A stretch of 37,552 bases of DNA from positions 1 to 37,552 of the forward strand of contig JACZYK010000001.1 in NCBI GenBank assembly GCA_022571135.1, written 5' to 3'. The stretch's first letter is position 1; each line of letters opens with the position of its first letter. This document shows, in pieces, positions 8,364 to 17,459 of this stretch. Under the pieces are notes generated by a model. That model saw only the letters and a list, made by a program, of their open reading frames with translations, was not told where the DNA came from and searched no databases. The stretch is from Bacteroidota bacterium (lineage in GTDB: Bacteria > Bacteroidota > Rhodothermia > Rhodothermales > UBA10348). The position numbers and the translations under genes are program-made.

Positions 8364-9254
8364 ATGGGGAAGGTAATCGCAGTCGCCAATCAGAAAGGGG
8401 GCGTTGGAAAGACGACCACCGCCGTAAACGTGGCTTCCTCTCTCGCCGCCATGGAGCATCAGACGCTTCTTCTGGATTGCGATCCCCAGGCGAACAGCAC
8501 GTCAGGCATCGGTATCGATCCAAGAACTGTTTCCGCGTCCACGTACGAAGTCCTGCTCGGCAGTTGCTCAATGGAAGAGGCGATCGTGGTTACGGAAATG
8601 CCCTATCTGGATCTGGTTCCGAGTCATATCAATCTCGTGGGCGCCGAAATCGAGATGGTCGATGTTCCGGACCGGGAGAAGTTGCTGAGGCGCTCGATCC
8701 AGGATGTTCGAAAAGTCTATGACTTCGTCGTCATTGACTGTCCCCCGTCACTGGGGCTGTTGACCCTTAATTCTCTAACCGCCAGTGACTCGGTGCTTAT
8801 TCCCGTGCAGGCAGAGTATTTCGCCCTGGAAGGACTCGGACAATTGCTCAATACCATCAAACTGGTCCGTCAGCATCTGAACCCGAAGCTCGAAATCGAA
8901 GGCGTGCTACTTACGATGTTTGACTCCCGTCTGCGACTGGCCAACCAGGTTGCTTCCGAAGTCAGGCGCTATTTTGGAGAAAAGGTCTTTCGAACGATCG
9001 TTCAACGAAACGTCCGACTCTCAGAGGCCCCCAGCTTCGGACGACCGGTTCTTCTCTATGACGCTACGAGCGTCGGCGCCCGAAACTATATTGCTCTTGC
9101 CAGGGAAATTCTCCTGACGAACAAAGCTCGTCTGAATCTGGAGCCTGCCGCCTCGGGCGGCCGGGAGAAAGCCTCGGGCGGCCGGGAGAAAGCCTCGGGC
9201 GAAAATAGCCCGCCTCCATCAGACATGAACCCGACAAACGGCCAGAATAAGTGA
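8364..9254 (+). CDS. parA: Chromosome partitioning ATPase ParA/Soj with an unusual repeat-containing C-terminal tail
   Basis: Deviant Walker A ([13 protein letters not shown]) with ParA-like sequence throughout. The last ~45 aa are low complexity and include ASGGREK repeats. Confidence 0.95.
9150..9201 (+). repeat. 21-bp perfect tandem repeat (about 2.5 copies of GCCTCGGGCGGCCGGGAGAAA), in frame inside the parA 3' end
   Basis: Read directly from the sequence: 9150-9170 and 9171-9191 are identical, and 9192-9201 is a partial third copy. It encodes [17 protein letters not shown]. Confidence 0.9.
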
Positions 9255-9265
9255 CGCCGCACGAG

Positions 9266-9314
9266 GGCCTGTTAACGCTAACTGAAAGCGCCCTGTAGCA
9301 GCCTGTAAACAGGC
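9266..9314 (+). repeat. Dispersed intergenic repeat, short form (box GGCCTGTTAACGCTA + CTGAAAGCGCCCTG + GCCTG-UAAA-CAGGC hairpin)
   Basis: Begins 12 nt after the parA stop. It is closely similar to the minus-strand copy at 12715-12774, and it shares the 5' box with 21079 and 21911. Confidence 0.8.
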
Positions 9315-9374
9315 GAATCAAGGCGTGTGGAGAGAAATTTGGTGAAATCAAATGAACGACGAACAACACGGAGT

Positions 9375-9445
9375 GACCTGTTTACAAGCGCTACCCACCG
9401 GGCCGGGTCTATTTTTTTGCCCGGCGGCGTTAGTAGAGACTTATG
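9375..9445 (+). repeat. Dispersed intergenic repeat, long form, diverged copy
   Basis: GACCTGTTTACAAGCGCTACC box, then a GCCGGG/CCCGGC hairpin around the conserved CTATTTTTTTG, then an AGTAGAGAC box. The architecture matches 21079-21152. It lies tail-to-tail with 9457-9530. Confidence 0.65.
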
Positions 9446-9456
9446 TAACGGTGTTA

Positions 9457-9530
9457 CACTGCGTGTCTACTGCCTTGCTGGACAAAAAAATAGTCGCCGG
9501 CAGGACGGTTTCCGGTAGCGTTGACAAACC
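9457..9530 (-). repeat. Dispersed intergenic repeat, long form (74 nt)
   Basis: The reverse complement aligns without gaps to 21079-21152, with 63 of 74 identical positions by hand count. Confidence 0.85.
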
Positions 9531-9562
9531 CTAGATCCCTCCAAACCAATATTCGACATCGC

Positions 9563-10507
9563 ATGTCTAAAAGAAAATCAGCGTTAGGAAAGGGACTGGG
9601 AGCCTTGCTCCCCGCTGAGGCCTCGGGAGAGGAAGACGGTTCAGATATTTCGAAAATCAGACTGTACAATTTCGATGATCGCATCCGGGCGGCAGGCCGG
9701 GTTTCGGAAATTGAGATGAATCTGATCGATCCTAATCCTTTCCAGCCGCGATCGGATTTCGATGAAGACTCCCTGGATGAACTGGCGGCTTCGATTCAAC
9801 AACTTGGAATCATACAGCCCATTACCGTCAGGGCGGTTCGGCTCGGTCGATACGAGATAATTGCCGGCGAGCGGCGACTTCGTGCAGCGCAGCGGGCGAA
9901 TCTGACCCGTATCCCGACATTTGTCCGGGAGGCGGATTCGGAGGCGATGCTGGAAATGGCCCTTGTCGAAAATGTTCAACGCCAGTCGCTCAACCCGATC
10001 GAGATCGCCATGGGCTACCAGAGACTCATCGACGAGTGTGGGCTGATACAGGACCAGGTTGCTGAAAAGGTCAGCAAGAATCGAACAACTGTTGCGAATT
10101 TTCTACGGCTCCTGCGCCTCCCGCCAAAGGTGCAGGCTGCACTGAGAGACGGAACCGTATCGACCGGTCATGCCCGTGCACTCATTTCGCTGGAATCCGA
10201 AAAGGACCAGCTCAGCGTACTGGCACGAATTATCAGGGACGGCCTCTCCGTCAGAGCGGTGGAAGAGCGCGTTCGCACGATTCTGGAAGAAGACCAAGAG
10301 AAGAAACCATCCGCCAGAAAGCGGGCATCGATTAAGGTTGTTCCAATCGAGAGCCCCGAACTCAGAGCGATCAGAGATCGCCTGCGCATCACCTACGGTA
10401 CGCAGATTTCTATCAAATCGGCCGCTAACAAGAAAGGGGGGCGCATCGAGGTGGAATATTATTCGGATGACGACCTGGAGCGAATTGTCGAACTCATGCT
10501 TCGTTAG
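9563..10507 (+). CDS. parB: Chromosome partitioning protein ParB/Spo0J
   Basis: MSKRKSALGKGLGALL N-terminus, ParB box (IAGERRLRAA), HTH and a C-terminal dimerisation region. The ORF track starts at TTG 9521, but ATG 9563 gives the canonical N-terminus. Confidence 0.93.
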   Translation: MSKRKSALGKGLGALLPAEASGEEDGSDISKIRLYNFDDRIRAAGRVSEIEMNLIDPNPFQPRSDFDEDSLDELAASIQQLGIIQPITVRAVRLGRYEIIAGERRLRAAQRANLTRIPTFVREADSEAMLEMALVENVQRQSLNPIEIAMGYQRLIDECGLIQDQVAEKVSKNRTTVANFLRLLRLPPKVQAALRDGTVSTGHARALISLESEKDQLSVLARIIRDGLSVRAVEERVRTILEEDQEKKPSARKRASIKVVPIESPELRAIRDRLRITYGTQISIKSAANKKGGRIEVEYYSDDDLERIVELMLR

Positions 10508-14722: not shown

Positions 14723-15373
14723 CTATAGACCTAAACGGTTCAACAGATAGTCGATCCGGCTTCTCCACCCGAGTCCATAACCGTACCTATCTGCGGTTCC
14801 ACGTCCGAAGTGTTCTACGTATTCCTCTACGGGGTAAGAACAGATTCGCCATCCATTTCTGGCCGCATCGATGCAGTTCTTCAGAACCGGTAGTCCGTGG
14901 TGTTCGAACGGCGCGAGCAACTCGTATTTCTCTTTTCTGATCAACATGAAGGCTGAAACCGGAACGGGTGTACCTGCTGTGGCGGCAAAGCCCCTTCTAT
15001 TCACCGTTACAATCTTTCCGACGGCATAACACATTGAATCTTCCGTCATCATCTTCGTCATCGCCTCGAGAAAGCCCCCACTTTTCGTGCGGGTATCGCT
15101 GTCAAAAACGTACACAAACGGGGTCTTGCTGCTCCGGATCGCCTGATCCATGGCAGGGCCGTGATACAGGTTCTCCGCATTCCGAATGAGGGTTATCGAA
15201 TCCGGAAAGGCGGCCTGAAGTGTTTTGATGCACTCGAACGAGTCATCCATCGAGCCGTTCTCGACGACAATTAGCGGGACGTCCCGATAGTATTTCCTGA
15301 ACGATCGGACAGCATCGGTCAGGAGATCCGGGGTCTGATAATTGATGACGGCTGCTGTAACGAGCCCCTGCAT
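14723..15373 (-). CDS. Glycosyltransferase family 2
   Basis: From MQGLVTAAVINYQTPDLL: a GT-A N-terminus, ENGSMDDS, and a DSD motif (VFDSDT). The tracked ORF extends to 15652, but that upstream part runs through a terminator and repeat sequence. ATG 15373 is the first plausible start. Confidence 0.8.
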   Translation of the reverse strand: MQGLVTAAVINYQTPDLLTDAVRSFRKYYRDVPLIVVENGSMDDSFECIKTLQAAFPDSITLIRNAENLYHGPAMDQAIRSSKTPFVYVFDSDTRTKSGGFLEAMTKMMTEDSMCYAVGKIVTVNRRGFAATAGTPVPVSAFMLIRKEKYELLAPFEHHGLPVLKNCIDAARNGWRICSYPVEEYVEHFGRGTADRYGYGLGWRSRIDYLLNRLGL

Positions 15374-15408
15374 TGCTGACCCTTTCCTGAATCGAACCGG
15401 CACAAAAC

Positions 15409-15434
15409 AAAAAAAGCCACTCTCTAAGAGTAGC
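15409..15434 (-). terminator. Rho-independent terminator ending the candidate RNA gene
   Basis: The minus strand reads GCUACUCU-UAG-AGAGUGGC (8 bp including one G-U pair) followed by UUUUUUU. The plus strand shows A7 at 15409-15415. Confidence 0.65.
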
Positions 15435-15652
15435 TTCCTTTGCTTCCCGACGCGCGGACCTCCCCTGGCTTGAATCTTCCACCGAAGTGGCCGAGCCGAA
15501 CCAGTTGAATGGGAGGTTCGGGTCTCTATGGTTTCCGACTTTCCGGTTTCCCGGACCATCGGTGACGTATTCCACCCTTGCGAGTTTCCTACGTAATGCC
15601 TTCGTCGTGTGGGCACACGGCGGAGACAGTTCGCCCACGAACACTCCCACAT

Positions 15653-15987
15653 GTTTCTTCCACTCTCCCGAAGGATTGCTTCCGTCGCACACGGCTGTGT
15701 GTTTCTTCCACGACTCCGAAGAATCGTTTCCGTCGCACACGGTTGTGTGTTTCTTCCGCTCTCCCGAGGGATTGCTTCCGTCGCACGCTGCTATGTGTTT
15801 CTTCCACGGCTCCGAAGAACCGTTTCCGTCGCACACGGTTGCGTGTTTCTTCCACGGCTCCGAAGAACCGTTTCCGTCGCACACGGTTGTACGTTTCGTC
15901 CACTCTCCCGAAGGATCGCTTCCGTCCCGTACGCCCTGCGTTTCTTCCGCTTTCCCGAAGGATAGCTTCCGTCGCGCACGGCCTCTC
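15653..15987 (-). repeat. Tandem array of seven 48-nt units (one is 47 nt) plus a degenerate eighth unit reaching about 16030
   Basis: Plus-strand unit starts at 15653, 15701, 15749, 15797, 15845, 15893 and 15940, each beginning GTTTC(T/G)TCC. Units 4 and 5 are nearly identical. All six reading frames are open across the array. Confidence 0.95.
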
Positions 15988-16486
15988 TTCCCTTCTGCCA
16001 GCGGCTCCGAAAAGCACTGTCAGCGTGTAGAGAAGAGGTTCGCTTCGCCCGTTTTTCGGTCCGCTTCTTTCCCCGAAATCGGCCAAAGCCGACTGCGGTT
16101 CCATCAGCAGTCCAACGGGCTCAGCCCCCGCCGGTCCAGAACTTAACGCCGGGACGTGTCCATTCCAGTTTCCAGCGAGACTTACTCACCCTTTACATCT
16201 TCCGCGATCGCCGAAGCTTTCGCTTCCGTTGCATCAAGCCACCTTCCGCCTTCCTCCGGTCACTTGCCTCTGACTTCCGAATCTTTCGACTCTTCCACCA
16301 TTGACATCACGGGGGACTGCTTCCGGTGCGATCCGACTCCAGTCGGATACTCTCGAGAAGTATAAGACCTTCATCGCCGGTCGGAGCGGTTAGTGTCGTC
16401 ATGATCTTTCGATCACGTGCGGGCCAACCTCATGCAGCCTAGAGACTCAGTCACGTCAAGGAACGGTGCCGTCAGGCACTGGACGT

Positions 16487-16515
16487 ATTATATTCCTATA
16501 TGGTACTGATGTCAA
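16487..16515 (-). promoter_or_regulatory. Exact sigma70-type consensus promoter (TTGACA, 17 nt spacer, TATAAT)
   Basis: The minus strand reads TTGACA (16515-16510), TCAGTACCATATAGGAA (17 nt), TATAAT (16492-16487). An A lies 7 nt downstream at about 16480. Confidence 0.6.
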
Positions 16516-16835
16516 TAGCAACGACATTCTGGAAGTCCACAAAGAGTTCACACAGATATCCACAGCGGGGTTGACAGACCGAATGAGCGAGTGTGAATCT
16601 GTCCGGCGACCGGTTATCGGCGACGGGCAGAAGTGCAAAAAGCCCGACCGTTAACGACCGAGCTTTTCGCTGCCCATTGTCACTACGCGACCGAGAGATC
16701 CCGTTCTCGGGATGCATTCCAGGCGGCATGATTGGACGCTAAGATAAGTCGATCTATTTCCATTAGCAAAAAACAATAACGGATTAACCCGTTCCTTGGC
16801 GAAACAGCATCAAGAAGGGGGGAATACAATAACGG

Positions 16836-17459
16836 TTACAAACCGATCAGACTTAAAAAATTTCCCAGTGATCTCGGTTCGATCATGATCGTCAGCAGCA
16901 AACCACCCAGCGCTCCCCCCAGGTGCGCCTCGTGTGCGATCCACCCACTACCCCTGCTCGCCTGTTTTTTCATGGCGTATATCGACAGGGCAACGAACCC
17001 GATTGCGAACAGCCATGCAGGAATCGGAAGGAGTCCAAACAATACGATTTGCCTGAACGGATTGAAGAGGCAGAACGCAAATAAAATTCCCGAGATAGCG
17101 CCCGATGCGCCCACAGCCGAGTAGGACTCATCGTTGCGGTGGGCGTAATAAACCGCTCCGTGGGCCGTCAACAGCGAGCCGAAGTAAACCAATATGAATG
17201 CGGCCGAACCCATTCTCAGTTCCAGATACGGTCCGAAGTAAAAAAGCGTGATCAAATTGAAGGCCAGGTGCCCAAGGCCGGCATGAACGAAACCCGCCGT
17301 AATGAACCGATAGTACTCCCTGTCTTTCCTGATCCTCTTGGGTCGAAAAGCCATACGACCCATCAGGGATTCGTCCATGAACATCGAGTAGAGTCCAGTC
17401 AGAATGTTGATGAGAATTATGAACAGGGAGACTGGAGCTTCTGAGAACACGTTGAGCAT
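16836..17459 (-). CDS. Rhomboid family intramembrane serine protease
   Basis: Six or more TM segments, HxxxN region (HAGLGHLAFN), catalytic GASGA(ISG) and a downstream AHLGGALGG histidine motif. Confidence 0.9.
   Translation of the reverse strand: MLNVFSEAPVSLFIILINILTGLYSMFMDESLMGRMAFRPKRIRKDREYYRFITAGFVHAGLGHLAFNLITLFYFGPYLELRMGSAAFILVYFGSLLTAHGAVYYAHRNDESYSAVGASGAISGILFAFCLFNPFRQIVLFGLLPIPAWLFAIGFVALSIYAMKKQASRGSGWIAHEAHLGGALGGLLLTIMIEPRSLGNFLSLIGL

Follow-up and report, generated by a model that had tools for sequence, protein, structure and literature searches.

The described RNAs closest to the one reported here are of two kinds. CsrB, CsrC and RsmX/Y/Z are non-coding RNAs along which a short GGA motif is repeated, in a copy number that differs between relatives, and for which titration is a plausible mode of action; OLE, GOLLD, ROOL and raiA exceed 0.6 kb, are noncoding and lineage-restricted, and combine many covarying helices and conserved junctions with a promoter and a terminator of their own. 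These characters recur together at a locus of a Rhodothermales bacterium (GenBank assembly GCA_022571135.1, contig JACZYK010000001.1), of which we analysed a stretch of 37,552 nt, hereafter the window. There, a 1.45-kb gap between two minus-strand genes, encoding a family-2 glycosyltransferase (GT2, 14723-15373) and a rhomboid protease (16836-17459), holds an array of tandem hairpin units. Our analysis shows that this array consists of a single RNA module, inserted in a variable number of copies in a large structured non-coding RNA of the Rhodothermales, previously undescribed; we found no account of this RNA in the literature.

Over 15652-15982, Tandem Repeats Finder detects a 48-nt repeat, present in 6.9 copies that match at 79%, as well as higher-order periods of 96 and 144 nt. 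A covariance model of the unit, for which 79 units were used, recovers seven units and no more on the minus strand, at 53-69 bits each, and, with its filters off, no other copy in the window. GGA occurs 22 times in the array (11 expected from base composition), and half of these motifs fit A-N-GGA (ACGGA). The initial annotation of this DNA had arrived at exactly this count and had drawn two hairpin types separated by free linkers. The hairpins it listed (ACGGUUC-UUCG-GAGCCGU, ACGAUUC-UUCG-GAGUCGU, the A-type stems and a CUCG loop) are all found in the sequence, and the stem covariation it reported is upheld on 79 distinct units from 10 arrays. Its architecture has to be redrawn, as each unit forms one rod of about 44 nt, and the GGAs, which had been placed in single-stranded linkers, lie instead in an internal loop that has a covarying helix at either end. 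Moreover, what had been taken for a degenerate eighth unit, at about 15985-16037, is a conserved core hairpin in which the unit model gives no match.

The rod, into which each unit of 46-50 nt folds by itself, consists of an outer stem, P1 (5-6 bp), a symmetric 8x8 purine-rich internal loop, a second stem, H2 (7-8 bp), and an invariant UUCG cap, which forms the apical loop in about 100 units. In the internal loop, 5'-NRACGGAA-3' stands opposite 5'-GGAAGAAM-3' (CGACGGAA opposite GGAAGAAA); GGAA thus faces GGAA, the GGA motifs are held there, and the central C-G pair is formed in 93.7% of the units. Conservation reaches at least 90% over the 79 units at G13, A14, A15, A36, G38 and C22-UUCG-G27, and the minimum-free-energy fold is the rod in four of five single units. 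Covariation was counted on an ungapped alignment of the 79 distinct units. The P1 and H2 cells are paired in 84.2% of cases as against 73.6% in shuffles, and double-change cells number 139 against 53, neither observed value being reached in any of 500 shuffles, a test that overstates independence since the units are paralogues and the arrays related. When the partner columns were slid as a control, just 22-43% of the cells paired. For P1 in particular, a permutation test indicated that the specific partner of each GUGUG-type segment is the CACAC-type segment located beyond its own H2, with a mean of 4.03 Watson-Crick pairs out of 5 compared to 3.20 for non-neighbour controls (0 of 2000 shuffles reach the observed value). 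Compensatory changes are also seen in this stem between arrays: GCGUA/UACGC (L011) is replaced by GCAUA/UAUGC (L020 and L023), and GUACG/CGUAC (window) by GCACG/CGUGC (L008). We consider it very probable that the locus specifies a structured non-coding RNA with this unit fold.

Two other folds were tried and rejected. A second small hairpin, CACAC-AACC-GUGUG, gave a mean of 3.05 pairs, no better than chance in the permutation test, and a single double-change cell, with 438-486 of the 500 shuffles doing as well; it is sterically impossible in two L028 units that have a 1-nt linker, where P1 is kept. A K-turn was set aside by inspection, no register offering a 3-nt bulge beside G.A/A.G and Watson-Crick flanks unless the covarying H2 is broken.

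The stems give an indication of which molecule is selected: G.U cells outnumber A.C cells (120 vs 50), which points towards the minus-strand RNA. The initial annotation had kept a repeat peptide in play, on the ground that no frame contained a stop. Four of the six frames are open, but within 15652-15982 one plus-strand frame is stopped at 15963 and one minus-strand frame at 15793. The peptide itself is refuted by the homologues. In the nine homologous arrays tested, stops interrupt every one of the three sense frames; indels of 1 nt separate orthologous arrays; unit lengths run from 45 to 50 nt within single arrays; and the 'proteins' that gene callers predict over related arrays pass through each of the three frames of the unit inside a single open reading frame (ORF). 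Mismatches lack codon periodicity in four of five pairs (p = 0.12-0.95), and in the fifth, L013 vs L009, the p value of 0.03 comes with whole-unit gaps that make the register uncertain. No Pfam family matches any array frame, and an exhaustive protein search with the 171-residue frame returned just translations of related arrays and unrelated repeat proteins. A DNA-level element (iterons, parS-like sites or a cruciform) could draw on the parA and parB genes about 5 kb away and on hairpins that could also form in DNA, as a tandem-repeat protein could on the several open frames of the window. However, the G.U excess and the strand-specific purine skew (an excess of G and A on the minus strand over 15400-16450) indicate selection on one RNA strand, the unit is confined to the array within the window, and we found no evidence of DNA-level action by the array. 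We find either a protein or a DNA element scarcely credible. As an aside, gene callers place frame-hopping 'hypothetical proteins' over these arrays (P0001-P0006, P0010).

Rhodothermales is placed in the phylum Rhodothermota, and falls within Bacteroidota in GTDB. Besides the window, eleven homologues were found on Rhodothermales-like contigs, the arrays of two of them (L019 and L022) being identical. The number of units per array is 4 in L019 and L022, 7 in the window and L028, 9-10 in L011, L020 and L023, and 11-13 in L008, L009, L010, L013 and L017. Exact look-ups of the flanking proteins returned just same-species contigs of 1.6-2.2 kb, broken at the array. A genome scan with the rhomboid protein gave two loci only, the unrelated L007 and L006, a syntenic contig from an 'uncultured Rhodothermales' bin, with 67-72% DNA identity, which ends at the RNA's 5' end. 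A protein search with the plus-strand gene-caller frame yielded four 'hypothetical proteins' on contigs with related arrays (L008-L011); a metagenome scan with the unit pattern yielded the homologues L013, L017, L020 and L023 and the genomic contigs L019 and L022, and the pattern had no match in viral contigs. The genome-bin contig L028 (81.5% identity) keeps the order rhomboid, promoter, RNA, terminator, GT2 of the window, and synteny is found at three genomic loci, in which the RNA follows rhomboid and precedes GT2 or HAD. Unit order matches one-to-one among L011, L020 and L023, and the linkers between units measure 1-4 nt across arrays.

Such variation could be that of a neutral minisatellite: a repeat prone to slippage, devoid of a function of its own, that a permissive site in the non-coding RNA tolerates. 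The range of copy number (4-13) would agree with this, as would recent block duplications (for example the near-identical units 6-8 of L008, and the 96- and 144-nt periods), a copy number that may vary within species, and the degenerate state of some units. Nevertheless, old and diverged units, such as the orthologous ones of L011, L020 and L023, keep both stems by compensatory changes, together with the UUCG; the array persists where flanking genes are only 67-72% identical in DNA, and the module recurs in another RNA family, described below. We hold the neutral explanation to be unlikely.

Three observations concern the assemblies. In L001:1-270, part of a conspecific metagenome contig (98-99% identity) and compared with window positions 15647-15822, the last unit is present in two copies more than in the window or in L002, which reflects either a within-species copy-number polymorphism or an assembly artefact. 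Short-read assemblies are interrupted at the array or beside it in L001-L005, and at the 5' end of the RNA in L006. In L008:1-241, read in the RNA sense, the first 87 nt repeat the internal segment 155-241, probably through an assembly artefact.

The RNA that carries the array has recognizable boundaries (Table 1). Transcription is predicted to start at about A16480 on the minus strand, and the relatives L022 and L028 have TTGACT-17-TATCAT at the position equivalent to the window promoter. The terminator sits just upstream of the GT2 gene and is kept at the equivalent place in the same two relatives. GGAA is present at 31.6 per kb in the transcript, whereas the remainder of the window has 5.6 per kb and the antisense strand 0.9 per kb; that is 34 occurrences where 8 are expected, and 20 where 4.7 are expected outside the array, and GGA itself occurs 52 times in the transcript vs 31 expected. 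Outside the array, an alignment of six array-deleted homologues (~700 nt) gave a consensus fold of 207 pairs, 55 of them with compensatory changes on both sides, the structure having been predicted on the same alignment, which favours it. The terminal helix pairs the 5'-end UUCCUUGACGYG with the 3'-end CGCGUCRGGAA, over 11 bp and with no non-canonical cell in the consensus fold; its changes are one-sided (G-U), so that the helix is compatible with the data without proof by covariation. The core also holds a solitary unit-like module, which is kept in all homologues. A long intergenic transcript that has no conserved reading frame is joined here to a structure supported by compensatory changes, the two characters by which large structured bacterial non-coding RNAs are recognized. 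No Rfam 15 model matched the window at gathering score, nor the 15350-16850 segment at E up to 10, and an Rfam scan of seven related loci gave nothing above noise.

Table 1. Features of the array and of the RNA that carries it, in window coordinates.
Feature	Position	Strand	Basis or remark
Promoter	16487-16515	minus	TTGACA (16515-16510), 17-nt spacer, TATAAT (16492-16487); 12 of 12 sigma-70 consensus positions matched
Predicted primary transcript, ~1076 nt, purine-rich, noncoding	15405-16480	minus	Bounded by promoter and terminator
Intrinsic terminator, AAGCUACUCU-UAG-AGAGUGGCUU then a U run	15405-15437	minus	Long perfect stem in the minimum-free-energy fold
Probable mature RNA, ~1030 nt, 5'-CGGCACCGUUCC... 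to ...GUCGGGAAGC-3'	15442-16471	minus	Shared ends of short metagenome contigs
Core 5' domain	15982-16471	minus	Alignment and consensus fold of six array-deleted homologues
Core 3' domain	15442-15646	minus	Consensus fold; long-range helix back to 16426-16437, invariant GAGACCCGAACCUCCCA...CCAGGGGAGG
Terminal helix, 5' strand, UUCCUUGACGUG	16452-16463	minus	Pairs with 15444-15454
Terminal helix, 3' strand, CGCGUCGGGAA	15444-15454	minus	Consensus fold
Solitary unit-like module, ACGGAAGC-GAAAGC-UUCG-GCGAUCGC-GGAAG	16194-16233	minus	Unit model R1, 17.5 bits, E = 0.013
Second GGAA-facing-GGAA internal loop, around the GAGUC-GAAA-GAUUC hairpin	16273-16298	minus	Sequence; consensus columns 175-200, 3 compensatory pairs
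Core hairpin, CUCUUCUCU...UUCG-type loop...AGAAGGGAAGAG	15985-16037	minus	In all homologues; 4 compensatory pairs in the inner stem
Seven-unit rod array	15647-15981	minus	Tandem Repeats Finder, covariance model, alignment and folding; units linked by 3-4 nt
Order within a unit: P1, CGACGGAA, H2 5' strand, UUCG, H2 3' strand, GGAAGAAA, P1 return strand			
Individual units	15934-15981, 15887-15933 (47 nt), 15839-15886, 15791-15838, 15743-15790, 15695-15742, 15647-15694	minus	Covariance model
171-codon open frame, the former repeat-peptide candidate; not a gene	15589-16104	minus	Stops in homologues, no Pfam match

The short metagenome contigs bear on the ends of the molecule. L013, L017 and L020, from different samples, begin at the base equivalent to 16471, and L023 begins 7 nt further in; L013 and L020 finish at the base equivalent to 15442, and L009 and L023 finish 1-2 nt short of it. 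Because these contigs share the ends of the RNA while genomic contigs extend beyond both, into the promoter on one side and the terminator on the other, their shape suggests that they are assemblies of a stable, end-trimmed transcript. Trimming would then probably leave a molecule of about 1030 nt whose two ends pair with each other. Another fate that can be envisaged is that of a precursor cut by an RNase into ~48-nt hairpin RNAs, each acting as a small RNA or a decoy. The regularly spaced rods and their 1-4-nt linkers would suit such a process, and processed repeat arrays have a precedent in CRISPR. We judge it very improbable, since full-length contigs of about 1.1-1.2 kb with common ends are assembled across the arrays, the variable parts of the units are self-complementary stems and hence lack targeting capacity, and no gene for a processing enzyme lies nearby.

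The module is also found in a second RNA. The metagenome scan brought out another GC-rich (64%), purine-rich noncoding sequence of at least 1.6 kb (L012, L015, L016, L018, L021 and L024-L026), referred to as Group 2, Group 1 being the RNA of the window and its homologues. It contains 4-8 tandem units of 39-43 nt with the design GACGGAA-hairpin(UUCG)-GGAAGRA (for example L025:120-450, minus strand of the locus). A comparison of the Group 1 core with Group 2 by nhmmer detected no homology beyond the module, the solitary module being the sole part of that core that resembles Group 2 units, and the Group 2 RNA has no Rfam match. A divergent Group 2 relative, L027, is without the array. The rod may thus be a portable module, installed independently in at least two unrelated giant RNAs, and the array an evolvable multivalent scaffold or decoy in a new class of large RNAs; we regard this as possible, although on the doubtful side. 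If it were true, a widespread partner, either a protein or an RNA assembly, would be expected to recognise the GACGGAA/GGAAGRA loop. Separately, a single module-like hairpin, AACGGAAGCGCCCCUUCGGGAGCGCGGAAG, lies at L014:169-201 (minus strand), between genes of a genomic contig of high GC content that has no relation to the other loci (unit model, 26.7 bits).

What could the array do? The initial annotation had proposed a sponge-like RNA of CsrB/RsmZ design. A minus-strand RNA with covarying stems and a repeated GGA motif is indeed present; the CsrB/RsmZ design and the notion of a stand-alone small RNA do not hold. As the stems covary and a GGA-containing motif is repeated many times, it is still reasonable to retain the multivalent logic of a sponge or scaffold. 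We tentatively favour, as a real possibility, that the job of the array is multivalent binding, as a scaffold or a decoy, of variable copy number. Where GGAA faces GGAA, the two segments probably form a stack of consecutive G.A pairs; solution structures have been solved for runs of consecutive sheared G.A pairs in purine-rich internal loops (Chen et al. 2005, a reference of PMC5393185). This stacking would turn the units into stiff rods, each with the same purine-rich surface, and the array would display 4-13 copies of that surface on inert, very stable hairpins. Such a multivalent platform could bind many copies of one partner and thereby concentrate or titrate it. The partner might preferably be a protein, but also another RNA species or further molecules of this RNA itself, and gain or loss of repeats would tune the binding capacity.

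Several points weigh against this proposal, or against the structure on which it builds. The internal loop and the stems of orthologous units change at similar rates (0.16-0.18 vs 0.13-0.24 differences per site), and only the UUCG loop is near-invariant between these units. Loops are degenerate in some units, such as units 1-2 of L022 and units 3, 4 and 9 of L011, which implies that architecture may matter more than loop sequence. The folding-energy z-scores of the whole array are unremarkable (-0.9 for the minus strand and -1.2 for the plus strand), the paralogy of the units tempers the shuffle tests, as said above, and expression is read from the shape of contigs. Moreover, no gene for an RNA-binding protein was found among the genes of the window (37 kb).

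The same observations make a serious rival of a purely architectural role, in which the rods would be structural expansion elements (spacers, struts or self-assembly surfaces), no protein would be titrated, and copy number would change size and geometry only. It is serious because the loop evolves about as fast as the stems, only the UUCG is near-invariant and some units are degenerate, so that the strictest conservation bears on the cap and the rod architecture instead of the loop sequence. The insertion of the array in a highly structured core and its complete absence from the Group 2 homologue L027 also speak for it. On the other hand, UUCG caps are poor tertiary-contact elements. A threefold difference in copy number among relatives would be poorly tolerated by a precise architecture, and the sharing of a GACGGAA/GGAAGRA consensus by two RNAs whose cores are not homologous is accounted for more readily by one partner acting in trans on both. 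RNA-only homo-oligomers are known for the large bacterial RNAs GOLLD, ROOL and OLE (PMC12286853), which again favours architecture. All in all, we consider this role rather unlikely, while giving it real weight beside multivalent binding.

One candidate partner is CsrA, whose dimers would be bound and sequestered on the GGA motifs as in a CsrB/RsmZ-type sponge. CsrA shows dual-site binding, and the two GGAs flanking each H2, about 25 nt apart, have a spacing that a CsrA dimer could bridge; the abundance of the motif (22 in the array and 52 in the transcript, half fitting A-N-GGA) points the same way. But the GGAs lie in a closed internal loop while the apical loops are UUCG, no Rfam Csr/Rsm model matches the window or its homologues, and the RNA is about 1 kb long with a large conserved core. 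Furthermore, a csrA gene was not found in the 37-kb window, and we found no paper linking CsrA with Rhodothermus or Salinibacter. A 2026 survey reports few CsrA genes in Bacteroidota, the phylum to which GTDB assigns Rhodothermia, and notes that CsrA typically recognises GGA in hairpin loops (PMC13443453), both of which argue against such a sponge. We therefore regard sequestration of CsrA as quite improbable, and multivalent binding stays our favoured, if tentative, proposal.

The remaining genes of the window are ordinary chromosomal ones (RadA, RpiA, LolE-like, UvrD, ParA/ParB, GNAT, HAD, a sigma factor, Usp, DsbD, RF2, GlmS, DAHP synthase, TyrRS and LptB), and the scan found no tRNA or tmRNA gene. 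With parA and parB at 8364-10507, the window may lie close to the chromosome origin. An element of about 105 nt (16632-16737, minus strand), located between the stop of the rhomboid gene and the promoter of the large RNA, ends in an intrinsic terminator, AAAAGCUCGGUCGUUAACGGUCGGGCUUUUUGC; it is near-identical in L028 and strongly conserved in L022, far above its flanks. The ORF 16496-16729 that overlaps it shows no protein-level conservation. No Rfam family matches the element, which is probably a small RNA in its own right.

In bacteria, large structured RNAs are a rarity, and the majority of them have led to new biology; the present one is not represented in Rfam and belongs to a phylum that has been little studied. 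If its rods bind a partner, they would play in bacteria the part that multivalent repeat domains play in eukaryotic long non-coding RNAs, and would embody a sponge principle unlike that of CsrB. There is also a practical lesson, as false 'hypothetical proteins' are annotated over such arrays and short-read assemblies break there.

How, finally, does this RNA compare with known systems? CsrB-type RNAs, of 100-450 nt, contain little but repeats and expose GGA in apical loops or free linkers, whereas the Rhodothermales RNA is about 1 kb, has its repeats inserted in a structured core, and sets its GGAs face to face in a closed internal loop under an apical UUCG; there is no match in sequence or structure between them, and the lineage rarely has CsrA. 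No homology to the OLE, GOLLD, ROOL, HEARO or raiA families was detected with Rfam 15 at E up to 10. We know of no RNA of the OLE, GOLLD, ROOL or raiA type with an internal tandem hairpin array of variable copy number, nor of any other bacterial structured RNA whose internal repeat array varies in copy number between, and possibly within, species. The Xist A-repeat, NORAD and PNCTR are alike in setting tandem short structured or protein-binding units in a long RNA, with multivalent recruitment and an evolving copy number, but these are eukaryotic, far longer, unrelated in sequence and provided with known partners, while the host here is a bacterium. Expansion segments of stable RNAs, rRNA included, likewise insert many hairpins, over a length that varies, at one fixed position of a conserved structured core, and are present or absent according to lineage, as in the Group 2 relative L027; however, such segments do not as a rule repeat a single module in tandem with a conserved internal-loop consensus, and the core here is not rRNA. 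CRISPR and REP/BIME elements share transcribed, repeated palindromic units. CRISPR differs by its unique spacers and cas genes, the units here being abutting, with 1-4-nt linkers and no cas domains in the window, and REP/BIME by their dispersed copies, the units here being direct repeats with no copy elsewhere in the 37.5 kb. In conclusion, this RNA combines features of the large ornate bacterial RNAs with those of the repeat-based sponge RNAs, and belongs to neither family.

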